Shown piece after piece: positions 4,462 to 22,454 of a stretch of DNA of 62,494 nucleotides (position 1 is the stretch's first letter; each line of letters begins with the position of its first letter). The translations under genes were made by a program, and so were the position numbers. The notes below the pieces were generated by a model. It was not told where the DNA came from and searched no databases. It saw only the letters and a list, made by a program, of their open reading frames with translations. The stretch is from a virus (lineage: Duplodnaviria > Caudoviricetes): positions 1 through 62,494 of IMG/VR virus record IMGVR_UViG_3300009151_000076. One strand, given 5' to 3'.

Positions 4462-5145
4462 TCAGTTAAATGTTGATGATGATTCGTTAGCAATCCAATA
4501 CTCAAGCTCTGGGGCCTTAAAGTGAGCAAACCCCTTCGTAGAGAGGTCGACCTTGTACTCATTAGTGATCGTCTTAGACAGAACGCCAAAGTACTCTGGC
4601 TTAAACACTGCGTTAAAGGTACGATCTGTTGTACCGAGCGATACGCTATAAGTATCACCTAATGCGTTCGACATGTCAACTGCCTTGATCGTGAGGTTAG
4701 TGCCGTCACCGCTGACTGAGATCTCAGACAGGTTAAGAATACCTAGAGCGCGTTCGATCTCTTTAATGATCTCTACACTAAGGGTAAACTTAATCTCTCC
4801 CTCTGGAAAGTTAGGGTCTTTTGTAATAGGCATAGGGATCGTCGACTCTTCAGCGATAGTGTAGTTAGCGTTCTTATTATTAGAACTATCTTGAATAGTA
4901 ATAAAACGATCGTGTACGCTGATAGTTGGTTCGTTAAATAGCGACATAGTATTCAAGAAGCGACTTAGACTATAGACTGCAAACCTCTTGGTAAAGTTAA
5001 CAGGAACCTTAGCAGTAGCAAAGATGTTCTTGAGTGGAGACACCGTAGTGATGGTGTCTCCCTCTTTGAACAACATGGACGGATTGATTAAAGAAAAACT
5101 CTTTAGTACATTAACCGTCTTCGTATCAAACTTCACGTTATCCAT
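4462..5145 (-). CDS. gp45: Sliding clamp
   Basis: LKSFSLINPSM N-terminus, YWIANE C-terminus, 227 aa, directly upstream of gp44. Confidence 0.92.
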   Translation of the reverse strand: MDNVKFDTKTVNVLKSFSLINPSMLFKEGDTITTVSPLKNIFATAKVPVNFTKRFAVYSLSRFLNTMSLFNEPTISVHDRFITIQDSSNNKNANYTIAEESTIPMPITKDPNFPEGEIKFTLSVEIIKEIERALGILNLSEISVSGDGTNLTIKAVDMSNALGDTYSVSLGTTDRTFNAVFKPEYFGVLSKTITNEYKVDLSTKGFAHFKAPELEYWIANESSSTFN

Positions 5146-5160
5146 AATATATTGTACTCC

Positions 5161-6012
5161 TTACTTCTTTTTCTTCTTCAAGGCTTCAGGATCGGCCGTA
5201 GCAGAGGCCCCGATCTGTGCTAGATCGGCGAGCGATCCACCAAAGATATACGAGCCAACGTGCTGTAGCTTCATCCATGGGCAGAACCACGTCGCGAGTC
5301 CGATCTCTTGAACCTTCTGACAGAACCAGTAGTCCTCAGAGAGATAGCGCTTCGACTTAGGATCGATCTCAGCTTGGAAGAACTGCATGATCTCGCGCGA
5401 GCCGTCAAACGCCTCTGTGCGAACGTGGTCAGGGCGATAGCTGTACTGGGGATAAGCCTCGACAAACTTCTTACAAGAGTCCTTAGTGATCATCATAAAG
5501 CCGGTACCGATCTCAAGGACCTCACATGGCTCGCCGATGGCGATCGAGCCGGTATTCTGCTTAGGGTTGAACACGTAGTCGCCGACGTACTTGTCGAGGT
5601 TGCCTGGATCCTCGTCTGCAAGACCCTTATCAACCGCGAGCTTGATCTTCTCCCAGCTGATGCACTTCTTAGGGTACGGCCCGCCGATGATATTGTACTT
5701 GTCTGGCTCTTGCGCCTGAAGCGCCATGAGTGCAATGACGTCGTGTGGGTTGAACCCGATGTCCGAGTCGATGAACATAAGGTGCTCTGCCTCAGAGCGC
5801 ATGAACTCATCGACGCAGTAGTTACGCGCGCGAGTGATCAGCGACTCGTTGAAGAGGAAGTAGAGTTGAAGTGGGATACCATAGTTTGTGCAGAGCGCCG
5901 AGAGGTCGGCGATCGACTTCGTAAACATACCTGCACAGGCGCCCCCGTACATAGGTGTGGCGAGGAACAGCTTACGCTTACGAAGGTCCTCGATCGGAAT
6001 ATTAATTTCCAT
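5161..6012 (-). CDS. GT-A-fold glycosyltransferase-like protein
   Basis: LFLATPMYGG, ESLITRARN, DxD motif FIDSDI, GTGFM, YLSEDYWFC, H near the C-terminus. Confidence 0.7.
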   Translation of the reverse strand: MEINIPIEDLRKRKLFLATPMYGGACAGMFTKSIADLSALCTNYGIPLQLYFLFNESLITRARNYCVDEFMRSEAEHLMFIDSDIGFNPHDVIALMALQAQEPDKYNIIGGPYPKKCISWEKIKLAVDKGLADEDPGNLDKYVGDYVFNPKQNTGSIAIGEPCEVLEIGTGFMMITKDSCKKFVEAYPQYSYRPDHVRTEAFDGSREIMQFFQAEIDPKSKRYLSEDYWFCQKVQEIGLATWFCPWMKLQHVGSYIFGGSLADLAQIGASATADPEALKKKKK

Positions 6013-6512
6013 TATTTAGTCTCCTTGTCATGTACATGCAATTGTATAATAGCATAGTGAATCACTTTCATTAGATCTTTTCTCCAGTCGGCAGGAGAAC
6101 CCTTCTTACCATAACGCTGGGCATACTTCATGACGTTGCCCATACAGAAGCCTGTACCGTGGCCAGAATCAATAATAAACTCTGTGGCTTGAAACTTATT
6201 CTGCGAGTAATGCTCGCCGTACGTATTATTAATATACGCTAAAACCTCGCTGATGTACATACTTTCATTGTACTTATATTCAATATTTTTAGATGCGTCT
6301 ACCTTTGTTATATTAAAAGCCATGTTGATATCTGTCTCTACGTATCCTTCTTTAGGTCCAGTAGAATACATATTAGGCCCTGTAGGTCCGTTAGCACCTA
6401 CAGATCCAAACATCGGCATGTCAAGCGTATTAATATCATCGGCCGTTAGCGCACCTATAGCACCATCTTTAAAATAATCCATCCCACCCTCCATATTAAA
6501 AGAAACTCTCAA
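6012..6512 (-). CDS. DUF3310 / T7 gp1.7-like protein (putative nucleotide kinase) with N-terminal extension
   Basis: HY..Q..EFI..GFCMGNVMKYAQRYGKK..DLMKVIHY motif. Confidence 0.7.
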   Translation of the reverse strand: MRVSFNMEGGMDYFKDGAIGALTADDINTLDMPMFGSVGANGPTGPNMYSTGPKEGYVETDINMAFNITKVDASKNIEYKYNESMYISEVLAYINNTYGEHYSQNKFQATEFIIDSGHGTGFCMGNVMKYAQRYGKKGSPADWRKDLMKVIHYAIIQLHVHDKETK

Positions 6513-7686
6513 GACTCATGGCTGCTGAATTATACTCGTGCGTCTGAGATAAATTACTCTGGTATATGTAGTCAGTATCGAGCTCTTCTAGCTCGCCGTT
6601 AATCCACTTTTTAATCTCGCCGGCCATATCGGCCGCCGTTTGGACTGGTACATTCTGACATATATGATTGACGTTCTTCTTAGGATCTATAAGTTCAAAG
6701 TTATCAGGCAGTCCCATGATCGTCATGGCCTCTCTATAGTTTATGTATCTGTCTTCTATAGGATGTGTTAAACTCGTAGGGTAGTGACCTACAAAAGCTC
6801 CAATATAATCTTTAGGAACAATGGTCCCCCTCCTCATAATAGATAAACCTCTTGATAGCTTATCGGCTTTGTACTCGCACTTCTTAACTTGTTTTTCAAA
6901 TCCATTGATCTTCATCCACTCTGCCACTTCTAGATAGTTGATACCGCGCTTTTCAATATAGGCTTGCGTATCATTATCGTGTGTTCCCGAGGCTTTCATC
7001 AAAGCAGCAAACTCTCTATGAGTTAGACCACCGTGAATATGTTCAAGCACGTACTTATAATATGGATCTTGAGATGGTATTTTAGAGTTAATGGTCTCTC
7101 TCTGAGTATTACCTAGGGCACCTAAGATTACATCTTCGATCTTTTTATGTGGGCGATTGAAGTACGATAGCAGAGGTGTTTTATCGCCTTTCCAGAAGAA
7201 GTAAAAAGATCTATTACGCACCTGTGGACCACCATGAAGTATGGTCTTGGTACGATACACGGTCATGGTGTACCCATTTTCTTTCCCGATCTGTCGCAGC
7301 TGATTACGAACTTTATCACCGATCTTACCAGCAAATCCTGGAGCGTTCTCACCCCAAAGTACTTTGGGCTGCATCTCTTCGAGCACAAATTTTGTGGTAT
7401 CAATCATCCACTTGTTATTCTGATTGTCGTCGCCGTATCCGTGTGACAGCTGAGACAGCCCAGCACATGGACAAACGGATCCAATAACATCGACTTTATG
7501 ATCTGGTCTATGACCTTTGTCGAGGACATAGTATGGAACTTCATTGTTGTAGTGATTAACGATGTGCTGATCATTCTGCCAAAAAGCTTCATAGGACATC
7601 AGGTAGTCTGGTCTAGATCCAAAAGCTTGCTCTTGACCGATCGTCTCGCCTCCAATTAAAGGTACGATAGTTGCGTGTTTAATCAT
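6496..7686 (-). CDS. Atypical DNA cytosine-C5 methyltransferase-like protein
   Basis: Catalytic PC (CPCAGLS), motif VI ENAPG, motif VIII PQVRNR, motif IX REAMTIMGLPD and motif X QNVP. Motif I is divergent (VPLIGG instead of FxGxGG). Confidence 0.8.
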   Translation of the reverse strand: MIKHATIVPLIGGETIGQEQAFGSRPDYLMSYEAFWQNDQHIVNHYNNEVPYYVLDKGHRPDHKVDVIGSVCPCAGLSQLSHGYGDDNQNNKWMIDTTKFVLEEMQPKVLWGENAPGFAGKIGDKVRNQLRQIGKENGYTMTVYRTKTILHGGPQVRNRSFYFFWKGDKTPLLSYFNRPHKKIEDVILGALGNTQRETINSKIPSQDPYYKYVLEHIHGGLTHREFAALMKASGTHDNDTQAYIEKRGINYLEVAEWMKINGFEKQVKKCEYKADKLSRGLSIMRRGTIVPKDYIGAFVGHYPTSLTHPIEDRYINYREAMTIMGLPDNFELIDPKKNVNHICQNVPVQTAADMAGEIKKWINGELEELDTDYIYQSNLSQTHEYNSAAMSLESFF

Positions 7687-7695
7687 TTTATATCC

Positions 7696-9105
7696 TTAAA
7701 AGAACGTTGATAGATCTGGAATAGAAGCTTTAAAGTCGCTTGCTACTCTTGCGCGCGATCCCTCGCCTTTAAATACATTAACTGTCTCTAATTTTATTTC
7801 TGAAAATCCAAGTGGGATAGGGTGATCTTTAAGAATATTATCGGCGTATTTCGCCAACTCTCTATTATTATAGACATTATATAATACTTCAAGATCAGAG
7901 TCAAATTTATTATAGTCTTTACCGGCCTTTAATATACCGTCGAACATCGCCGGCAGTACGATCTTAGAATCAAACTCGGCGCTGACGAAGTTTAAACCGG
8001 CCTCTTGATACTGTTTCTGCTTGATGGGGTTACCGGCGATATCTAAGATAGTATCGACGGTCTCATCAAGATTTTCACGATCGCTCCAGACTGCTAGGTT
8101 GTCGACGGAGTCAAAGCTCTTACCATCGTCGGTAAAATTATTTCTTCCATAGTCAACGTCGAATACAGGTATGGTCCCAAGCCCAATCATCTCGATCTGC
8201 GTATACTCCATACGATCGCCGTAGTTATTTTTATCTTTTAGCAAGCGATAGAACGAGGCGCCGAACATAGACTCTGCCATGATACGCATACCTTCGTTAT
8301 ACTTGTAAGGACCCATCGTTACTGTTTTAGTAGGGTCTTGAAGAACTTTAGGTGGGTACACGCAGTACGTATAGAACTCACACAGAGGATGATCTAAGAT
8401 ATCTACTCGCGCACCTATCGACTTCTCAATTCCAATAATCAAAGTATCAAAGCTTGAGTCTTTCTGACGAAAGTGTGGTGTCATGTCAAGGATGCGACGC
8501 GGATCTTTCATGGTTGTCCAACGACCCATATAAGTTAGTCTCTTCTTCTTATCAGACTCATACTTCTCGCCGGTTTTCTGTAGCTCAGATATATCAGTCC
8601 ATAACTTAAATCGACGTGTACGCTCACCAAGAATTTTGCTCGGGAATAACTTAGAGAAACCGGTAGAGAAGAACGTTTTTGTAGAGAAGTTCATAACAAC
8701 ATCGCACCAGTTTAAGATCAAGAACAGTATAGGGATTCGATCTATATTGTTCTTGCTGATCTCGTGCATCATCCCGACTATGATAGGCTTATCAAGCTTC
8801 TTTACAAAATTATTATAGAAACTCATTATGGTATTAGACTCGTGCTTGATCGATGGGTACGAGTTTAATATTACTATATCATAGTTACTATTGATATGAT
8901 CGGCGTGATTTTTAAAATCTTGAGGTATCATTCCGATATAGTTACTCGTATCGCCATGAAACTTTGCACGATGAAATTTTCTCTCATCTACGTGATAAGA
9001 GTCACATACGTGGCCATTTTGTTTAGCCCAGTTTGTCATCTCAACGCCTCCGCGCTGAACGCCACACCCGTCTAGTCCTTTGCCGTAGATGATCGCTATC
9101 TTCAT
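7696..9105 (-). CDS. agt: T4 alpha-glucosyltransferase-like GT-B DNA glycosyltransferase
   Basis: MKIAIIYGKGLDGCGV resembles the T4 AGT N-terminus. Also HE, YMGRWTTMKD and MEYTQIEMIGLGTIPVF. Has a C-terminal extension. Confidence 0.8.
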   Translation of the reverse strand: MKIAIIYGKGLDGCGVQRGGVEMTNWAKQNGHVCDSYHVDERKFHRAKFHGDTSNYIGMIPQDFKNHADHINSNYDIVILNSYPSIKHESNTIMSFYNNFVKKLDKPIIVGMMHEISKNNIDRIPILFLILNWCDVVMNFSTKTFFSTGFSKLFPSKILGERTRRFKLWTDISELQKTGEKYESDKKKRLTYMGRWTTMKDPRRILDMTPHFRQKDSSFDTLIIGIEKSIGARVDILDHPLCEFYTYCVYPPKVLQDPTKTVTMGPYKYNEGMRIMAESMFGASFYRLLKDKNNYGDRMEYTQIEMIGLGTIPVFDVDYGRNNFTDDGKSFDSVDNLAVWSDRENLDETVDTILDIAGNPIKQKQYQEAGLNFVSAEFDSKIVLPAMFDGILKAGKDYNKFDSDLEVLYNVYNNRELAKYADNILKDHPIPLGFSEIKLETVNVFKGEGSRARVASDFKASIPDLSTFF

Positions 9106-9548
9106 TTCTTACCCTTTGCAACTCTATCACGTAGCTCGGTCGTCGAGAACGAGTGCCTACGCTTGTTGTAGTGTATAGGACACAGTCCCTTACCCGTATG
9201 ATCTTTACCCTCGTACTCCTCACCAACAACCCTTATGTCAGGGTTGATCGTAAGAACCAAGTCTACGATGTCTTGCTCTTTCTCGAATGGGATGATCTCA
9301 TCGACATATTTACACGCAGAGACTTGAAGATATCTTTCTATGACCGTCTGTATCGGTTTATTCTTTGAGTCAGGACGATCCACAGTAGGATCTACGAGCA
9401 ACCCAACGATGAGGTAGTCACACATCTCTTTTGCTTCTTGAAGCATAACGACGTGACCACTGTGAAATAAGTCAAAAGTACTACAAGTAAACCCGATGAT
9501 AGGCTTTCTTCCTAGTTTCTCTCTTAACTCAACTCGATCTAAAAACAT
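9102..9548 (-). CDS. Cytidylyltransferase (TagD / glycerol-3-phosphate cytidylyltransferase-like)
   Basis: FDLFHSGH (HxGH), YLIVGL, KYVDEII, RRHSFSTTELR. Confidence 0.88.
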   Translation of the reverse strand: MFLDRVELREKLGRKPIIGFTCSTFDLFHSGHVVMLQEAKEMCDYLIVGLLVDPTVDRPDSKNKPIQTVIERYLQVSACKYVDEIIPFEKEQDIVDLVLTINPDIRVVGEEYEGKDHTGKGLCPIHYNKRRHSFSTTELRDRVAKGKK

Positions 9549-10639
9549 GGCGATACATCTTCTCTAAACAACTTGTCAATTATATCACGTACTAAATCTT
9601 TTTCAAACTTATTCTTTTTATACTTCAGCATGCGGATATAGTGAATCATCTCACATAGCTTACCATATATGATCTCATCTAAAGTTAGTAGGCTCTCGAA
9701 CTCTTCCAGTAACTTAGGTTTATTTATGCGTGATTTAGAATTTCCAAACACGCTCTCATAATCAAAGTGAAGTGACTGATATACTTTACCGATATCAAGT
9801 AGATATGACGTATAGAGACCTGCCGGTGTGTTAGGATCAATGAAGTAAACTTCGCCGTATCTATTTACTATTGCGTTCTCAAAAGTCATATCCCCATGAC
9901 AGAAGCTAGCAGATTTTGTCATGTACTCGGATACAAAATCACTTGTTATGATCTTAAGTATCTCTTGCTCGTGCGGTATGGCGTTAATAGAAAGGTGAGT
10001 TTTAATCCTATCCACCATCGTGTTCCAATCACTGCTGATTGCCGGTAGATCGCCTATCAAATTTATAGTCTCCTTAACAGTGATAAGGTCGTCTCCGGTA
10101 CAGCAATTATTGAGAGACATGCCTTCGATGTACTCCATATCCAGCGTATCGTTATAGTTAGACATGACTCTAGGTACGCGGATATTGGGTTGTTTATTTG
10201 CTATTGTCTTATACCAAAGGGCTTGCTCGCGAGCATTCGGTGCGTTCTTGATAACACGGTTATTAAAGATCTCGATCTCTGCACCGGACCCTCCGATGAT
10301 GCGCTCGAACCTAGCGCTTGAAAACTCATCAGGACGCATGGCTTTGTCGTCGATGTACGCGAGCGCAAGTGGCTTACCAAACAAAAGCTCGTGATACTTT
10401 ACGTTGTTCTTCTTAAGCCAAATACGAAGTGCTGGACCCCTCGAAGCCTCTGCAAGCGCAGGATCGTTGTCGCACGAGAGCATACCTCTGGCCGTGTGTA
10501 AGATTATCTTCCACCCAGAGTCATACATCTCGTTTATCTTTGCGATAACGTCCGTGTGCGGTATCGCGTTTGCATAGTCGCGATCTATGTGTGTCGAGAT
10601 CGTGTCGTCGACATCCACCACTATAGACTTCTCAAACAT
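9539..10639 (-). CDS. HAD-family (capsule-biosynthesis type) phosphatase fused to an APH/choline-kinase-like phosphotransferase
   Basis: N-terminal DVDDT, HTARG, FGKP..YIDDKA. C-terminal MEYIEG, HGDMTFEN and FIDP. Confidence 0.8.
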   Translation of the reverse strand: MFEKSIVVDVDDTISTHIDRDYANAIPHTDVIAKINEMYDSGWKIILHTARGMLSCDNDPALAEASRGPALRIWLKKNNVKYHELLFGKPLALAYIDDKAMRPDEFSSARFERIIGGSGAEIEIFNNRVIKNAPNAREQALWYKTIANKQPNIRVPRVMSNYNDTLDMEYIEGMSLNNCCTGDDLITVKETINLIGDLPAISSDWNTMVDRIKTHLSINAIPHEQEILKIITSDFVSEYMTKSASFCHGDMTFENAIVNRYGEVYFIDPNTPAGLYTSYLLDIGKVYQSLHFDYESVFGNSKSRINKPKLLEEFESLLTLDEIIYGKLCEMIHYIRMLKYKKNKFEKDLVRDIIDKLFREDVSPCF

Positions 10640-10994
10640 TCAAATATTCCTCACATAACAAAAGCATCTCATCTTCATAGGCTTTATCGTTTAGCTTTCT
10701 ATTTAGCCCAGAAGGGTGTGGAAGTATAAAGTGCTCGACATTTATTTTTTCTAAAGCTTTAGACACAAAGTTACCGAGTGCTATTACTTTCTCATGCCCA
10801 ACGGTACAAGCGGCCAAGATATCATAGTCGATATCTTTGTGTGAGTACTTACCCTGATTTGGTATGCAGTTTGTAAATGCAAAGATATCTAACCCAAGCC
10901 GATCTGCCCACGCTGGAAGTCTCCTCCAGGTGGTGCTTCGATCAGCTTTAAGATTTGATGGATTAATCCCTACTATCAAGACGCGCTGAGACAC
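10632..10994 (-). CDS. Minimal uracil-DNA glycosylase superfamily protein
   Basis: LIVGINPS, FTN, VIALG and LPHPSGLN motifs. Probable GTG start at 10994; the longer ORF-track start would overlap the deaminase extensively. Confidence 0.7.
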   Translation of the reverse strand: MSQRVLIVGINPSNLKADRSTTWRRLPAWADRLGLDIFAFTNCIPNQGKYSHKDIDYDILAACTVGHEKVIALGNFVSKALEKINVEHFILPHPSGLNRKLNDKAYEDEMLLLCEEYLNV

Positions 10995-11469
10995 CTGCTT
11001 CTTGGAAGATAGCCGAGGTAACTTTAAACGAGTCTCTCCACTTGTCGTTGATCTCTTCTGGGCAGCACATGAAGACTCGCTTGATGCCGACTTGGACAAC
11101 ACCTTTGGCGCACTCCGAGCAGACTGGTAGTCCATAGACGTAGAGGTCAGCATCTTTTAAACTCACTCCATTGAGCGTTGCATTGTATATACAGTTCATC
11201 TCTGCGTGAACTACAAACTTATACTTCTCTTCACGATTGATAAGACGCTCATATGAGTCCTTAATACCGCGAGGGAAACCGTTGTATCCCTGCGAAAGGA
11301 TCTGGCCATCGCGACCTACAGCCACAGCTCCGACTTTGGTGCTTGGGTCTTTAGACCAACTAGCAATGTGCTTAGCTAGATCTAGATACTTGTTCATCCA
11401 GCTCTCAGAAAAGCTGTCTGGCTTACGAGGAAGCCACGTATCAGAGAACGAGGTCAAAGTGTCGCTCAT
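10963..11469 (-). CDS. cd: dCMP deaminase
   Basis: SKDPSTKVGA, GYNGFPRG, HAEMN and PVCSEC zinc-binding motifs. Confidence 0.93.
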   Translation of the reverse strand: MSDTLTSFSDTWLPRKPDSFSESWMNKYLDLAKHIASWSKDPSTKVGAVAVGRDGQILSQGYNGFPRGIKDSYERLINREEKYKFVVHAEMNCIYNATLNGVSLKDADLYVYGLPVCSECAKGVVQVGIKRVFMCCPEEINDKWRDSFKVTSAIFQEAGVSARLDSRD

Positions 11470-12103
11470 ATACGTGAAGGGATCCGACGTTCCAGTGAAT
11501 ATCTCCCATGTCTAATCCTAGATCGCTCGACAGTTCGTTCAATACATTCTCTTGCCAAGCGAAGTCGTTCTTATAGCCATACACGACGTCGTTTGATCTC
11601 ATCTGAACGACGGCGTCAAGCTTGTTATTGCGAATAAGATACTGCACAGAGTTAGTGCACATGAAGTCTGACCTGCCATTGAGGTTATAGTCATACTGCA
11701 TAGAAGGTCGCGTATATATCATTATAGCTCGACGCGAGAACGGATTGTTCTTTAACTCATTTAAACAGCTTGAGTATTGATAGCCGTTATCTTTACTGTA
11801 TATACACCAGCCATAGTTCGAGTTAACATAGCCATCGGAGTCTGCAACTTGCTTCCAGATAGCCGGCGGTCCGCCTCGGATATCATTTACATTCAAAGAC
11901 TGTAGCTTATACCACTCGATCTCGCGCATCACGTAGTCATAGTTGACGGTGCCAAAGATCGCGGGCTTATCTGCAATGAACGACGCGTTGATGATCTCGA
12001 GCATCTTAACGCCTGTCTTATCGATGACGTACATCTCACGCTCTTTAAGAAGTTTAAATGACTCACGAACATTATCGATATCATTACGGGTGTGTAGCAT
12101 CAC
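11441..12103 (-). CDS. gp42: dCMP hydroxymethylase (T4 gp42-like, thymidylate synthase fold)
   Basis: DKTGVK, NSNYGW, SRRAIMIYTRPSMQ, DFMCTN, MRSNDVVYGYKNDFAW and GSLHVY closely follow T4 gp42. Asp at the dCMP-specificity position. Confidence 0.9.
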   Translation of the reverse strand: MMLHTRNDIDNVRESFKLLKEREMYVIDKTGVKMLEIINASFIADKPAIFGTVNYDYVMREIEWYKLQSLNVNDIRGGPPAIWKQVADSDGYVNSNYGWCIYSKDNGYQYSSCLNELKNNPFSRRAIMIYTRPSMQYDYNLNGRSDFMCTNSVQYLIRNNKLDAVVQMRSNDVVYGYKNDFAWQENVLNELSSDLGLDMGDIHWNVGSLHVYERHFDLVL

Positions 12104-12438
12104 TTGATCTTTCTATTTAAGAAGTCACGATCGGGCTGCTGACCATCAACTTTGCCGCGCGAGTATGCGACATAGAACGAAGAGTAGTTTATGAGGTCTT
12201 TGGCCGAGTCTTCAAGCGACTCATAGTTAGGTTTGTACGTTGGATCGTTCTGCATGGCCTCCATGACTGAACGCATGCGAAGCAACTTTGCGTGCATGAT
12301 CTCGAGGATGGTCAAGCACCCCGTTGGGTAGTAGTCGGCCTGTCGTATGGTTGAGTTTGGGTTCTGATAATCTCGAGACTTCTTACTTTGAAGATCAATG
12401 CACTCTTGAAGCACTTTAATTGACTCACGATCTGTCAT
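12100..12438 (-). CDS. Nucleotide-modification-associated domain 1 (DUF1599/Nmad1-like) protein
   Basis: K..DY..K..R..ESLEDSAKDLINY pattern; GGAG RBS before ATG at 12438. Confidence 0.7.
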   Translation of the reverse strand: MTDRESIKVLQECIDLQSKKSRDYQNPNSTIRQADYYPTGCLTILEIMHAKLLRMRSVMEAMQNDPTYKPNYESLEDSAKDLINYSSFYVAYSRGKVDGQQPDRDFLNRKIK

Positions 12439-12982
12439 ACTGCTCTCCAGCTTGTTTCCAATAGTCTTCGATAACTGCTTTTTCATGTACCACCTTTAAT
12501 TGTTTTAATATATCGTATTGTTGTACTATTGTCAAGGCGCTATAAAGCTCAATTATCTCGTACTCATCACCATCTTTACCGGCAGACGCCTCTTTCCACC
12601 CAAATCGATATCCGCATAACTTTTCTGTCTCACTGTGGATCTTATTTTCAAGCTCCGTCTCGTTCCCTGGCTCTACGAGTAGAAGTCGAACAAACACGTC
12701 ATTTGGCGCAATGTTGTTCTGTCGAATATACTTACAGACGTTGTGGCCACCGCCGCGAATAGAATAAGTACGAGAGTGGATACTCTTGCTCTTACCGGTA
12801 TACCCGATCAGTGGATGGATGATAGAGTCACCTATCTCGACGATGTCTTTGTTGAGTGCTATCTGATATATCCCGACCTCTCCCTCTCCCTCGACGCGTT
12901 CGTTATATAGTCTTGTTTTTGTAGATGGGATAGAAACTACAGGGCGCCAATCGGTTTTAATTGTAATCAAGTTATCTATCAT
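12425..12982 (-). CDS. GIY-YIG nuclease (possible endonuclease II/DenA analogue)
   Basis: GIYQ..IGYTGKS..R..LE..H pattern; adjacent to the DenB-like gene. Confidence 0.55.
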   Translation of the reverse strand: MIDNLITIKTDWRPVVSIPSTKTRLYNERVEGEGEVGIYQIALNKDIVEIGDSIIHPLIGYTGKSKSIHSRTYSIRGGGHNVCKYIRQNNIAPNDVFVRLLLVEPGNETELENKIHSETEKLCGYRFGWKEASAGKDGDEYEIIELYSALTIVQQYDILKQLKVVHEKAVIEDYWKQAGEQYDRS

Positions 12983-13539
12983 ACGGCCTCACGATAAAAA
13001 GCGTGGCCGTCGATTGCGGCCGATTTGTGGTTATAATAAAAATCTTTGCTAAAGCCAGACATGGTGCAGTAGCGCCTAAAGTTCTTGGCCTCACACACCA
13101 AGAAAAATAGAACGTTATACGCCGAGTCTGTCTGGTGTAATTTACCGGATATAAAGTAGTCTATAATATCTTTGTTCTTTAGCATCGTCTCGATGCTCGG
13201 TGGCTTGAATGTAAAGTACTTCTTTGACCATCGCTTACACTCAAAAGTCTTTCCATTCTCTGGATCAAACACGTCGTACGCATATGAGAATCGATCTGTA
13301 TGATCGAACTCGAGAGGGTTCATCTGCATTCCCGTTACTTGTGCGAGTGCGTACTCAAGGACCATCTGCTCTACGCTGTGAAACACGTTCTCATAGCTTC
13401 TTCCGTTATAGTTCCTGAAAGGACAGTTGTATATCGACTCGGCTATAGAATTGAAGCGATCCATAAGCTCCGATGTTTTCTCTATCTTTATAGGCTTAGG
13501 TGTAAGAATAACATCGGCGTAGTCTTTTAAAGTTTTCAT
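12979..13539 (-). CDS. denB: Endonuclease IV (DenB)-like PD-(D/E)xK nuclease
   Basis: LEYALA..N..D..DRFSYAYDV..ECK parallels the T4 DenB segment AEFFVA..N..D..DPYTYAWDV..EVK (recalled from memory). Similar length. Confidence 0.6.
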   Translation of the reverse strand: MKTLKDYADVILTPKPIKIEKTSELMDRFNSIAESIYNCPFRNYNGRSYENVFHSVEQMVLEYALAQVTGMQMNPLEFDHTDRFSYAYDVFDPENGKTFECKRWSKKYFTFKPPSIETMLKNKDIIDYFISGKLHQTDSAYNVLFFLVCEAKNFRRYCTMSGFSKDFYYNHKSAAIDGHAFYREAV

Positions 13540-13940
13540 TCTTTATATACTCTGCCAAAAAGCCCTACGTTATTATTGTGAGATGGCGCCTCCCACCCTT
13601 CAGGCTTGATTAAGTCAGGAAGTCCAAGTGGGTTAGGGCGTGACTGCTTGACACCAACTTTCTTACTCATGTTAGCCTTAAGCACTTTATCCCAAGCCAT
13701 CTCGATGTCGACGTCCATTGCGTCGAGGGTGCCGATGGCGACTACGCAGAGATCGATCAGCGCGTCGACAGCCTCATCGGCCGTGTCGGCCTCAAGAAGC
13801 TCAGTCATCTCTTCTTCAAGAAACTTATAACGAAACTCAAGCAGCTTTGCCAGCATGTCATCGTCAAAAGTTTCAACTACCTTATGCACTCCATAGTGCT
13901 TGTGCATCTTATAGATATCGTCTACCCAATCTTTACTCAT
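13536..13940 (-). CDS. MazG-like / all-alpha NTP pyrophosphatase (candidate dCTPase/dUTPase)
   Basis: EEMTELLEA..DALIDL..ANMSK..LIKPEGW. Probable start MSKDW at 13940. Confidence 0.8.
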   Translation of the reverse strand: MSKDWVDDIYKMHKHYGVHKVVETFDDDMLAKLLEFRYKFLEEEMTELLEADTADEAVDALIDLCVVAIGTLDAMDVDIEMAWDKVLKANMSKKVGVKQSRPNPLGLPDLIKPEGWEAPSHNNNVGLFGRVYKE

Positions 13941-14466
13941 GTATCCACTCCGGCGCTTCGCGCTTTTTCCAACTGTGAAGGTTTGCTTTTCCAACTTTAT
14001 AGTAATTTCTATAGTTTATTATGGGGTCTTGACTGATGATATACTTGTCGTCCATACACGACGGCATCTCTGTCCACTCCCAATCTTTTAGATTGAACGG
14101 TGGTGCTTGAAGATCAATTGCGAGCATAGTACAGGCGTGCTTCTTCTCATATCGATACGTGTACTCGTCTAACAAAGCAAACAAGTGATCCGATAGCCAG
14201 GTATAGTTCTCTACGGATTGACGACACCATACTGCAGACGGATGATTAATGTGAGTTGCTTTGTACATCACGTCCTCACGACTGTCAACCAGCATCCAGC
14301 GCTTAATACGCCTTCCGCTTGTTACGTCGATATACTCTACGCCATCAAGTACTCGATGCGCGGTGGACAACAGCTGTGCGGACTCGAGGATCATCTTAAC
14401 GACGTGCTTATCGACCATTGACTGTGCTGCGGTGATTGGATTTTTATCGACATAAAAGATATTAAT
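13933..14466 (-). CDS. Pyrimidine-dimer DNA glycosylase (endonuclease V)-like family protein, apparent ATT start
   Basis: (M)NIFYVD..P..A..DKHVVKMILESAQLLSTAH, THINHPS..W, YRNYY. AGGAGG lies 5 nt before ATT at 14466. Confidence 0.78.
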   Translation of the reverse strand: MNIFYVDKNPITAAQSMVDKHVVKMILESAQLLSTAHRVLDGVEYIDVTSGRRIKRWMLVDSREDVMYKATHINHPSAVWCRQSVENYTWLSDHLFALLDEYTYRYEKKHACTMLAIDLQAPPFNLKDWEWTEMPSCMDDKYIISQDPIINYRNYYKVGKANLHSWKKREAPEWIHE

Positions 14467-14490
14467 GGTAGCCTCCTATGATATTTAAAC

Positions 14491-14520
14491 ATGGTACCAT
14501 ATGATATAATCTATGTAAAC
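14491..14520 (-). promoter_or_regulatory. Early promoter GTTTACA-N17-TACCAT with extended TG
   Basis: T4-early-like -35 (GTTTAC) and 17-nt spacer; heads the modification island. Confidence 0.6.
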
Positions 14521-20395: not shown

Positions 20396-20916
20396 TATAT
20401 TTTACTTAATTCATAGAACATATATTTAAATGCAACCGTACAGGTCATGTAGTTAACCGACTCATCTGTGGTCGAGAACTGAAGTGGACCTACCGATATA
20501 GGGATGCACTCTCTAAAGTTAACTTGATAGTTGGCAACTTTTGTACTGGCAGATATCAGTAAAGTTATATCAGACCTAATGCCCTTACCCGATGTTATTG
20601 ACTTGGCTGCAATTACTTGGTATTGATTGAAGTCTGCAGGAAAACCTAGCTCGGTAATCCAGTTAAACACTTCTAAGTAGTTCTGTAAATCTTCATCAAC
20701 TTTAAAAGTTACGTTTAAGTCGCCAAAGTAGAGTCTGTCACCTGTCATTGGAATATTAGAGAACGGCGTAGGCTGTAGCGGGTTCTCAAAAGACACGCCA
20801 GGTAGGTTAATAGACTGTATAAAGAAGTTTACATGTGGTGCTCTCTGGAGCGAGAACTCAAAGTTTAGTGGACTAAGAAAGTTCTTATTGATCGGGGTAT
20901 TGTCAAGTGCTGACAT
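20395..20916 (-). CDS. gp3: Tail tube terminator / tail completion protein
   Basis: NFLSP..F..P.V.FF.Q..NLPG, F.VDEDLQNYLE..NW; lies between gp23 and uvsY. Confidence 0.88.
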   Translation of the reverse strand: MSALDNTPINKNFLSPLNFEFSLQRAPHVNFFIQSINLPGVSFENPLQPTPFSNIPMTGDRLYFGDLNVTFKVDEDLQNYLEVFNWITELGFPADFNQYQVIAAKSITSGKGIRSDITLLISASTKVANYQVNFRECIPISVGPLQFSTTDESVNYMTCTVAFKYMFYELSKI

Positions 20917-20965
20917 GTTTATCTCCAGATAGATTCATATCTATTTATGAAAGGGATATAACCCT

Positions 20966-20993
20966 ATTATATAAGGTATTCCAAGAATGTCAA
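20966..20993 (-). promoter_or_regulatory. Sigma70-like promoter TTGACA-N16-TATAAT
   Basis: Perfect hexamers immediately after the gp23 terminator. Confidence 0.55.
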
Positions 20994-20995
20994 AT

Positions 20996-21020
20996 AAAAA
21001 AGGCGACCCGAAGGCCGCCT
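20996..21020 (-). terminator. Rho-independent terminator after gp23
   Basis: AGGCGGCC-TTCG-GGTCGCCT followed by a T run. Confidence 0.9.
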
Positions 21021-21053
21021 AATTTATGTCTGGTTAACCCAGATCTTTTTAAA

Positions 21054-22454
21054 TCACATAAGGTTGTTGACGATAATACGACGATAGTACTTGTTCGTAT
21101 TAAAAGCAAGTTCGCCTGCACCCTTTGTAAGGCCCTCAGCGAATGGATTTGCAACCATTCCGTAACGAGTCTTGAAGCCGATCTTTGGCTGGAAGGTCGA
21201 CTGATCAACCGCACGAACCATCTGAAGAGGAACGTATGGGCAGTAGAACAGACCGGCATCGAATGCCGAAGAACCCTTATAACCAACGGTCAGGTAGTTT
21301 CCGCCGATCGCATAAGGATCGATGTAGACACGAAGGCGACCATTGAGGACACCAGCGAAGGTGTTACCCGTGTCGTCAACCTGAAGGTTGTTGCTGTTAA
21401 GAGCAGGCGTGTAGTCAAGAACACCAGCCATCTGAAGAGCCGAAGCAACGTCCGACGAGCAGATGACGATGTTACCCTTGCCGCGACGTGTCTGCTTGGC
21501 AATCTGGTTAGCTTCGCGTTCAAGCTGGAACATAAGACCCTTGAACTTCTCAACCGACCAACGACCGTTAGAATCGGTATCAAGATCGAACACACCGGCA
21601 GTCGTTGTGTTTTCCTGAGCGCCAGAAACAGCGGTGATGTTGATGGTACGAACGACTTCACGATTGATTTCCGCAAGGATTTCAGCCGAAAGAATGTTCG
21701 TCAACTCTGTCTCAGCGTCAAGACCGTGAATGGCCTTAAGATCCTGAGCAAGTTCCATCGTGTATTCAGCCTTGAGGGCGCGGGTCTTAGCAGTGACCGT
21801 AACCTTCTCGATGGTGAATGCCATCTGGTTGAAGTTGTTACCCGAGTCAACGCCGAGCGACTCAGCGAGAGACGTTGGGATAGCCGAACCCGTGTTGTAG
21901 GTAGCAGTGTTCACCATTGGGGTGGTGTTTGTCTGACCTGGGATCGTACCGAATGCACCCTGACCGAAGGTCGAGTTACCCGAAAGAGCGTTTGTGCCCG
22001 TCGAGAACGCTGTATTGACTTCGTTGTAGAATGTTTCGTTGTCCTGCATCTGGAGATTTGCATATCCGTTTGCGCCGGTCTGGTTAGCATAGCGCGAACG
22101 CATTGCGAAGATCAAACCAGTTGGGCCTGTCATTGGCTGAACGCCGCAGATGTCATAGGCAATAAGGTTAGGCATCGAACGACGAACGAGCGAGATCAAC
22201 ACTGGATCGAAGGTGTCAATACCACCAGCTCCAGCTGCCGAGCTCGATGTACCCATGAAGTTAACAGGGGTCGACGAAACGGTTTCGTTAAGAGTAGTAA
22301 AGGAACCATGGGCTCCCGATTCCATGAGAGCACGTTCTGTATTCTCGAGGACGACTGCAGTTACGGAACGGCGGGTCTGGTCTTGGATCTTAGGAAGATC
22401 CGCGTGCTCCAGAATGGGCTGCCATTTTCTTTGAATTTCCTCAGCTAGATACAT
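21054..22454 (-). CDS. gp23: Major capsid protein
   Basis: DPVLISLVRRSMPNLIAYDICGVQPMTGPTGLIFAMR, RALKAEYTMELAQDLKAIHGLDAE, FQPKIGFKTRYG. Confidence 0.99.
   Translation of the reverse strand: MYLAEEIQRKWQPILEHADLPKIQDQTRRSVTAVVLENTERALMESGAHGSFTTLNETVSSTPVNFMGTSSSAAGAGGIDTFDPVLISLVRRSMPNLIAYDICGVQPMTGPTGLIFAMRSRYANQTGANGYANLQMQDNETFYNEVNTAFSTGTNALSGNSTFGQGAFGTIPGQTNTTPMVNTATYNTGSAIPTSLAESLGVDSGNNFNQMAFTIEKVTVTAKTRALKAEYTMELAQDLKAIHGLDAETELTNILSAEILAEINREVVRTINITAVSGAQENTTTAGVFDLDTDSNGRWSVEKFKGLMFQLEREANQIAKQTRRGKGNIVICSSDVASALQMAGVLDYTPALNSNNLQVDDTGNTFAGVLNGRLRVYIDPYAIGGNYLTVGYKGSSAFDAGLFYCPYVPLQMVRAVDQSTFQPKIGFKTRYGMVANPFAEGLTKGAGELAFNTNKYYRRIIVNNLM

Follow-up and report, generated by a model that had tools for sequence, protein, structure and literature searches.

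A fused phosphatase-kinase, a nucleotidyltransferase and an alpha-glucosyltransferase homologue as a probable cassette for glycosylating 5-hydroxymethylcytosine DNA in a T4-like phage

Why should a phage with a relative of the T4 alpha-glucosyltransferase (AGT), an enzyme that takes host UDP-glucose and is not known to have dedicated donor genes, carry directly beside it what look like genes for an activated sugar of its own? The question is raised by the virus record IMGVR_UViG_3300009151_000076 of IMG/VR (Duplodnaviria; Caudoviricetes), which we analysed over its whole length of 62,494 bases, here called the window, and which is estimated to be 37% complete. On its minus strand, successive open reading frames (ORFs) encode a fused HAD phosphatase-kinase (9539-10639, 366 amino acids), a nucleotidyltransferase (9102-9548, 148 amino acids) and an AGT homologue (7696-9105, 469 amino acids). 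We think it probable that this trio is a self-contained cassette for donor supply and transfer, which would glycosylate the 5-hydroxymethylcytosine (5hmC) of the phage DNA, most likely with a heptose. Its parts are as follows.

10295..10639, minus strand: HAD phosphatase domain, residues 1-115 of the fused gene 9539-10639 (TIGR01689, E 4.9e-20, over residues 4-114)
9539..10294, minus strand: APH/choline-kinase-like kinase domain, residues 116-366 and stop codon (from homology and fold)
9102..9548, minus strand: HxGH-type (CTP_transf_like) nucleotidyltransferase (PF01467, 1.6e-16)
7927..9105, minus strand: GT-B catalytic core, residues 1-393 of the AGT homologue (PF11440, 7.1e-15; phrog_2888, 1.6e-89)
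7696..7926, minus strand: C-terminal extension of the AGT homologue, residues 394-469 and stop codon (helices, then a low-confidence tail ending in ...DLSTFF)

The domain calls of a first-pass annotation (HAD-kinase, cytidylyltransferase-like, AGT-like) are supported by Pfam, PHROG and NCBIfam. Pfam, PHROG, profile and fold all place the 469 amino acid protein in the T4 alpha-glucosyltransferase family. Its Pfam match scores 55.4 bits against a gathering cut-off of 25. The T4 a-gt gene aligns to residues 1-393 over 1200 bases (approximately 26% identity), and positions 1-389 of the family profile match residues 2-400 of the 401-residue PDB entry 1xv5 (E 2.1e-43). When the predicted structure (predicted local distance difference test score, pLDDT, 92.2) was searched with Foldseek, the top nine matches were chains of T4 AGT (E 5e-26 to 1e-22; template-modelling score relative to the target 0.85-0.88), followed by retaining GT4-type enzymes at approximately 1e-10. 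Residues R195, K200, E300 and E305, of the phosphate- and ribose-type, are invariant in the family and align with identical residues of T4 AGT. The first-pass annotation had stated that the homologue is longer than the T4 enzyme, and this is correct: the T4 protein ends at profile position 389, and the window's protein has 469 residues against about 400, a C-terminal extension of approximately 75 amino acids. Such an extension is typical of the family, whose members measure 396-491 amino acids in the 120 homologues listed of 126. In the model the extension forms helices at 404-439, and its last block falls to a pLDDT of 55.

The fused protein holds both a HAD-like and an APH-like domain (model pLDDT 91.2), and in 36 aligned homologues the catalytic residues of each are invariant: D9, D11, T13, K89, D97 and D98 in the HAD domain, and K131, H248, G249, D250, N255 and D268 in the kinase domain. 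TIGR01689, the model that matches the HAD domain, describes a capsule biosynthesis phosphatase. The domain is 47% identical to gp082 of Acinetobacter phage Maestro, an arabinosylating phage, and its profile finds in the PDB 1xpj (2e-28) and AfhF of phage HY126 (9iqw; 2e-24). Foldseek aligns 9iqw at 41-42% identity; the PDB title of that entry is D-arabinose 1,5-diphosphate phosphatase. The kinase domain resembles the stand-alone kinase gp013 of Synechococcus phage S-CBWM1 (27% identity, E 2e-26), whose gene adjoins a HAD gene and an NTP_transferase gene, and the C-terminal half of Maestro gp083, a protein of the AfhE type (hhalign probability 91.9%, E 6.9e-7). By fold it matches ethanolamine and choline kinases first, and also LicA, fructosamine-3-kinase and APHs. 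The available text on phages RB69, DLP3 and HY126 describes how the two kinds of enzyme cooperate: the AfhE kinase domain converts arabinose 5-phosphate to the 1,5-bisphosphate, AfhF converts this to the 1-phosphate, and the NTP_transferase domain of AfhE makes UDP-arabinose, from which the sugar passes to DNA (PMC13326640). We propose by homology that the kinase domain of the window's protein would be an anomeric kinase of a sugar phosphate, and that its HAD domain would take the distal phosphate off a sugar 1,x-bisphosphate.

The 148 amino acid enzyme would then be a sugar-1-phosphate nucleotidyltransferase that makes the nucleoside diphosphate (NDP) sugar donor. Its best-scoring NCBIfam model is rfaE_dom_II (TIGR02199), at 76.9 bits and below the equivalog cut-off of 181.5. 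It carries the motifs H29-S-G-H32, RRHSFSTT and KYVDEII, of which the latter two align to motifs of TagD. A sequence search of the PDB returns as its closest solved relatives an ethanolamine-phosphate cytidylyltransferase (ECT, 9e-24) and the glycerol-3-phosphate cytidylyltransferase TagD (1.7e-17); given these relatives, the donor could possibly be CDP-linked. As an observation apart, Synechococcus phage S-B43 (L006, 51598-65990) encodes a homologue with 57% identity, followed by genes annotated as dTDP-glucose 4,6-dehydratase, epimerase/dehydratase-family protein and UDP-glucose 4-epimerase, which suggests that the NDP-sugar product of S-B43 undergoes further tailoring.

Might the trio instead follow a Kennedy- or teichoic-type route, in which the kinase and the cytidylyltransferase form a CDP-alcohol (glycerol, ribitol, ethanolamine or choline), from which the GT-B enzyme would pass an alcohol phosphate on to 5hmC? 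The nearest relatives of the nucleotidyltransferase, the two stretches on TagD motifs and the first matches of the kinase fold all point that way, and the first-pass annotation had proposed a TagD-type enzyme together with a glycerol- or ribitol-phosphate group on 5hmC. However, the score against TagD (TIGR01518) is 56.2 bits, under the equivalog cut-off of 165.4, as the score for RfaE domain II is under its own. The fold matches lose weight beside those of AfhE: according to the available text, the RB69 AfhE-type kinase domain likewise matches choline kinase, yet acts on a sugar phosphate, and the N-terminal domain of AfhE likewise matches CTP:phosphocholine cytidylyltransferase or LicC-like enzymes (PMC13326640, Table 1). 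The HAD domain would have no role in such a route; it and the kinase are homologues of the AfhF/AfhE type, superfluous for CDP-glycerol synthesis. The third protein is AGT-type in sequence and fold: a Pfam search at E up to 0.01 gave no family besides PF11440 and no Glyphos_transf signal, and TagF-like or teichoic-acid polymerases are absent among the Foldseek matches listed, ranks 1-50. Partner transferases of other loci also belong to glycosyltransferase families, and a tested trio of like layout is reported, in the available text of a preprint, to give a neutral sugar mass, read as heptosyl-5hmC (bioRxiv 10.1101/2023.12.21.572611). Polyol-phosphate chemistry is unsupported, because the kinase and phosphatase would lack a role and a TagF-type transferase would be needed; we give the alcohol-phosphate route next to no credence. 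What survives of the earlier proposal is the idea that the phage makes its own activated donor, which the AGT homologue would put on 5hmC.

Where would the 5hmC come from? The genes of this supply, together with a methyltransferase homologue on the other side of the trio, are these.

13536..13994, minus strand: MazG/PRA-PH-like nucleotide pyrophosphohydrolase (PF01503, 1e-8; phrog_671, 2.3e-22)
11441..12103, minus strand: dCMP hydroxymethylase of the T4 gp42 type (phmmer against PDB: 1b49/1b5d, 2.3e-83, residues 9-219)
10963..11469, minus strand: dCMP deaminase (PF00383, 6e-19; phrog_174, 2.9e-42)
6496..7686, minus strand: C5 cytosine DNA methyltransferase homologue, directly downstream of the AGT homologue (PF00145, 1.8e-17)

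The gp42-type hydroxymethylase lies just upstream of the trio. Its next-best PDB matches after the T4 hydroxymethylase are thymidylate synthases, at 3.6e-16, and on our reading of the sequence it retains Asp at the position of Asp169. The MazG-like protein is a candidate dCTPase on the T4 paradigm. With the hydroxymethylase and T4-style pyrimidine genes in place, this phage therefore very probably replaces cytosine by 5hmC before replication, as in T4. The C5-methylase homologue appears to hold all the usual motifs.

Homology thus points to a 5hmC supply, to phosphatase and kinase domains like those that act on sugar phosphates, to a nucleotidyltransferase and to an AGT-fold enzyme for glycosylating DNA, and a scheme can be drawn for how they might work together. 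The gp42-like enzyme would make 5-hydroxymethyl-dCMP, which would be incorporated at replication. The kinase domain would add a phosphate at the anomeric hydroxyl of a sugar phosphate that comes from the host or is made by the phage, giving a 1,x-bisphosphate, and the fused HAD domain would remove the distal phosphate to leave the sugar-1-phosphate. The HxGH nucleotidyltransferase would couple this to a nucleoside triphosphate, and the AGT-family enzyme would move the sugar from the resulting NDP-sugar onto 5hmC in duplex DNA, most likely with retention of configuration, by analogy with T4 AGT. The bacterial ADP-heptose pathway runs through GmhA, the HldE kinase, GmhB and the HldE adenylyltransferase; the proposed order of kinase, phosphatase and nucleotidyltransferase is modelled on this pathway and on the AfhE/AfhF arabinose pathway. 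The fusion unites enzymes of consecutive steps, which fits the proposed order.

Is the arrangement peculiar to this phage? A single-sequence scan of IMG/VR gave one partial locus only; hence we used an alignment-based scan, whose first 595 candidate stretches contained at least 351 relatives of the fused protein. Eighty loci were kept. When their ORFs were called, the fused gene was found again in all but one, that of L061 being lost at a contig end, which left 79, and collapsing the loci at 70% identity gave 44 non-redundant groups. The neighbours were assigned to families by a single Pfam scan of 46 cluster representatives, and BLAST clustering extended the labels to the other members. A 50%-identity library holds 150 representatives of the fused family at E up to 1e-30. 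Of the 79 loci, 74 contain the nucleotidyltransferase, no more than four genes downstream, and 41 of the 44 groups have it; in 66/79 it follows the fused gene immediately on the same strand, with a 4-base overlap in 20 of the 66. A glycosyltransferase lies within six genes in 35/44 groups (AGT type 5, other GT-B 19, TET-associated 11), and a thymidylate synthase (TS) homologue, C5-methylase, TET/JBP oxygenase or 5-hydroxymethyluracil DNA kinase occurs in 23/44. The cultured Agathobaculum phage AB434P2 has the HAD-kinase/nucleotidyltransferase pair adjoining a TS homologue, and in relatives L053 and L029 a C5-methylase and a TET oxygenase stand beside the three-part layout. The C5-methylase comes after the AGT gene in six loci (L007-L010, L012, L013) and is within six genes in 10/44 groups, six of which have a TS homologue and no TET.

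These neighbourhoods also bear on whether the cassette acts on DNA at all. It could be a set of auxiliary genes for host surface glycans, that is, lipopolysaccharide or capsule. The fused protein is labelled "capsule biosynthesis phosphatase" in the sources, the S-B43 nucleotidyltransferase homologues sit beside sugar dehydratases and epimerases without DNA-modification genes, and eight of the 44 groups have no recognisable DNA-modification neighbour. Against such a role, 36/44 groups have a glycosyltransferase or base-precursor enzyme adjoining the cassette, the window's transferase belongs to a family of DNA alpha-glucosyltransferases, and its cassette is set among genes for the gp42-type hydroxymethylase, dCMP deaminase, C5-methylase and replication clamp. 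We regard a surface-glycan role as highly improbable and keep to glycosylation of 5hmC.

Which sugar is transferred? It is probably a heptose, although we infer both the sugar and the nucleotide from related systems. The available text of a 2023 preprint by Pyle, Lund, O'Toole and Saleh describes, on metagenomic contig 53, a bifunctional HAD-like/APH-like enzyme, a cytidylyltransferase and a DNA glycosyltransferase of the GT-B type; in Escherichia coli with a methylase and TET background none of the three could be spared, and the products of 449 and 641 atomic mass units were read as mono- and di-heptose on 5hmC (bioRxiv 10.1101/2023.12.21.572611). Counted from 257 for 5-hydroxymethyl-deoxycytidine, a heptose gives 449, a hexose 419 and a pentose 389, and the preprint text gives 419 and 449. 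A heptose is favoured because this tested trio of like layout gave heptosyl- and diheptosyl-5hmC, and because at the locus L053, which has the contig 53 layout (C5-methylase, TET, HAD-kinase, cytidylyltransferase, glycosyltransferase), the nucleotidyltransferase shares 65% identity with the window's. It is favoured also because the larger relative G002 (the record of L013, T4-like and 91% complete) has a GmhA-like gene beside genes for a transaldolase and for a second nucleotidyltransferase of the HxGH class, which shares 44% identity with the window's. The GmhA-like protein carries SIS_2 (PF13580, 41.3 bits) and matches TIGR00441 at 1.6e-14, under the cut-off of that model; the run of transaldolase, isomerase and nucleotidyltransferase (L089, 23624-27028) lies approximately 40 kb from the HAD-kinase cassette.

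The same mechanism could also serve another sugar, with an NDP-pentose (arabinose-, ribose- or xylose-like) or an NDP-hexose in place of the heptose. The nearest characterised relative of the HAD domain uses arabinose 1,5-bisphosphate, NCBIfam links the kinase weakly (0.0016) to methylthioribose kinase, a pentofuranose 1-kinase, and the close relatives L008-L012 add an enzyme of the GalE/dehydratase type, a short-chain dehydrogenase/reductase, after the methylase. Moreover, the window's HAD-kinase and its counterpart in the TET-type locus L053 share only 36% identity. On the other side stand the two identities of the nucleotidyltransferase, to an enzyme of a contig-53-like locus and to one beside a GmhA-like gene. 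The family of arabinose-5-phosphate isomerase (PF01380) was not found in the window or in five larger relatives, and the arabinose phages, in the available text, use an NTP_transferase-type enzyme fused to the kinase and not an HxGH enzyme (PMC13326640). A pentose or hexose seems to us unlikely, and we retain the heptose.

Several observations weigh against the cassette as we read it, some of them against the heptose in particular. The low identity of the HAD-kinase to that of L053 is one, and the AGT homologue and the 426 amino acid glycosyltransferase of L053 are of different families (hhalign probability 0.2%). The nearest solved relatives of the nucleotidyltransferase use alcohol phosphates, not sugar-1-phosphates. 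The heptose of the preprint is a mass assignment only, and a search of its available text found no reaction sequence for the donor enzymes, nor the terms ADP-, CDP- or sedoheptulose (bioRxiv 10.1101/2023.12.21.572611). A GmhA-like gene (PF13580) occurs in only one of the five larger relatives, and neither SIS isomerase family (PF01380, PF13580) was found in the window, a weak negative for approximately 37% of a genome. A C5-methylase next to the trio has no explained role in a genome expected to contain 5hmC. The eight groups without a DNA-modification neighbour belong here as well.

The genes of the trio overlap, as the first-pass annotation had noted for 9539-9548 and 9102-9105, and direct reading of both junctions agrees. 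The HAD-kinase and nucleotidyltransferase genes have 10 bases in common, ATGTTTTTAG (9539-9548), and the nucleotidyltransferase and AGT-homologue genes have four, ATGA (9102-9105); the ORF upstream in turn overlaps the HAD-kinase gene by eight bases, ATGTTTGA (10632-10639). These overlaps fit co-translation of all three proteins, but they are ordinary for this window, where 20 of 52 neighbouring minus-strand ORF pairs overlap in our ORF set. The feature above chance is the conserved gene order, not the overlaps. Between 4400 and 14600, a scan for promoters and terminators found 30 promoter-like sites, where shuffled sequence had 21.1 +/- 4.3, and an operon boundary did not stand out clearly inside the trio.

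The virus is a T4-like phage. Its gene content includes RegA, the clamp loader, the gp45 clamp, gp46/47-type nuclease subunits and UvsW-like and UvsY-like proteins, and it also encodes portal, sheath, tube, terminase and the gp23 major capsid protein (21054-22454, minus strand; PF07068, 3.4e-149). Its portal protein shares 54-56% identity with the portals of Stenotrophomonas phage DLP_6 and marine cyanomyoviruses. A megablast search of 5000-14500 against INPHARED phages returned zero matches.

Other ORFs near the cassette deserve mention. The ORF whose stop overlaps the HAD-kinase start (10632-10961, minus strand, approximately 109 amino acids) matches the uracil-DNA glycosylase (UDG) superfamily weakly (0.0077 to 0.00022) and has a homologue at the equivalent place in L007 and L013; a longer call of 173 amino acids overlaps the dCMP deaminase gene. 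At 5161-6012 on the minus strand lies a 283 amino acid member of a purely viral family (phrog_1574, 3.3e-58), found near the cassette in 3/44 groups. It is weakly similar to nucleotide-diphospho-sugar transferases (Atlas rank 24, score 0.98, with Anp1 in 32% of members; HpsN, 0.0022) and may be a second glycosyltransferase. By contrast, a 513 amino acid ORF at 20907-22448 on the plus strand has no family match and runs antisense to the gp23 gene, and we discarded it as a shadow ORF.

Returning to the two neighbouring DNA-modifying enzymes, we noticed a similarity in how they end: the AGT homologue in ...KASIPDLSTFF (codons 7696-7740) and the C5-methylase in ...MSLESFF (codons 6496-6525). Only three of 58 ORFs in the window have ends of the S/D-L-x-x-F-F type. 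Tails of the SLExFF, DLSTFF or K..SLF type are frequent in the AGT family, and similar ends occur in some methylase homologues of other phages. T4 alpha-glucosyltransferase reportedly interacts with gp45, to go by the title of a 2004 paper. The C-terminal EKASLDFLFG of T4 DNA polymerase binds gp45, as the available text of another source has it (PMC6212786), and the tails of the window's two enzymes are similar to this end. A complex prediction of the gp45 homologue (4462-5145) with AGT residues 395-469, run without controls, scored 0.21 and 0.24 against a mark of 0.34, which counts neither for nor against clamp binding. The ...LxxFF tails of the AGT and C5-methylase homologues may be putative tethers to the gp45 clamp.

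A separate observation concerns Bacillus phage G (L001, 215205-232575). It encodes gp306 and gp313, both of them long AGT homologues that share 40-41% identity with the window's, and alongside them a kinase-like protein (gp311), a HAD protein of the beta-phosphoglucomutase type (gp310), an NTP_transferase (gp309) and a C5-methylase (gp301). The set has the look of a donor supply of different construction beside the same transferase family.

It is tempting to go further. The HAD-kinase and nucleotidyltransferase might form a portable cassette for an NDP-sugar that the host does not supply, for example CDP-heptose, or a heptose unlike the ADP- and GDP-heptoses in anomer or configuration, into which at least three unrelated families of DNA glycosyltransferase have been plugged. 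In the present phage the product would be an alpha-linked heptosyl-5hmC, undescribed in a cultured phage and made by enzymes that ride the gp45 clamp through their ...LxxFF tails. We put this fuller picture forward as tentative, and in its entirety rather doubtful.

The proposed cassette links two recent lines of work, the RB69-type arabinose pathway and the heptosylating contig 53, under a common scheme in which a kinase and a phosphatase shift the phosphate to the anomeric carbon before nucleotide activation. To judge by the number of IMG/VR relatives, the fusion paired with an HxGH nucleotidyltransferase occurs widely. For T4-like marine phages the scheme predicts a DNA sugar independent of host UDP-glucose. 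This bears on resistance to restriction and CRISPR, on the targets of type IV restriction, and on the failure of standard sequencing and cloning with such DNA. The enzymes are potentially useful for labelling 5hmC with unusual sugars.

How does the trio compare with systems already known? T4 AGT (PF11440; PDB 1xv5, 1y6f) is of the same family and fold, aligns over its full length and likewise stands beside an hmC pathway; the two differ in the low identity and the extra C-terminal residues given above. The ADP-heptose pathway has the order of kinase, HAD phosphatase and HxGH nucleotidyltransferase in common with the proposed scheme, but its kinase is of the ribokinase class, whereas the window's is APH-like. 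TagD has HxGH and RTxGISTT-type motifs in common with the window's nucleotidyltransferase, which nevertheless scores far under the equivalog cut-off, and the transferase carries no signal of TagF in Pfam or among the fold matches listed.

The arabinose pathway, as far as its available description goes, offers a HAD phosphatase of the same family (41-47% identity), a homologous APH-like kinase and a like logic, from sugar phosphate through bisphosphate, sugar-1-phosphate and NDP-sugar to DNA. The parts are joined differently: AfhE combines the kinase with an NTP_transferase-type pyrophosphorylase and the HAD phosphatase is a separate protein, whereas in the window the HAD domain is the fusion partner of the kinase and the nucleotidyltransferase (PF01467, HxGH class) is unrelated to the AfhE pyrophosphorylase. 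The arabinose phages are described as making 5-hydroxycytosine with a ThyA homologue that carries Asn in place of Asp169, where the window's gp42 homologue has Asp. To judge from homology, the trio would merge domains of the AfhF type and the AfhE kinase type, with the pyrophosphorylase swapped for the enzyme class that makes ADP-heptose in bacteria.

With contig 53, compared by its available description, the window trio has the three-part layout in common. In contig 53, 5hmC arises after replication through a methylase and TET, whereas the gp42-type enzyme of the window phage would supply it before replication; and the contig 53 transferase, GT53, is described as T4 beta-glucosyltransferase-like, whereas the window's belongs to the T4 alpha-glucosyltransferase family and has a C-terminal extension. 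The combination of a HAD-APH enzyme, a cytidylyltransferase-like enzyme and a GT-B enzyme acting on 5hmC is known; the window trio departs from it in the AGT-family transferase, the expected pre-replicative 5hmC and the setting in a T4-like marine phage.

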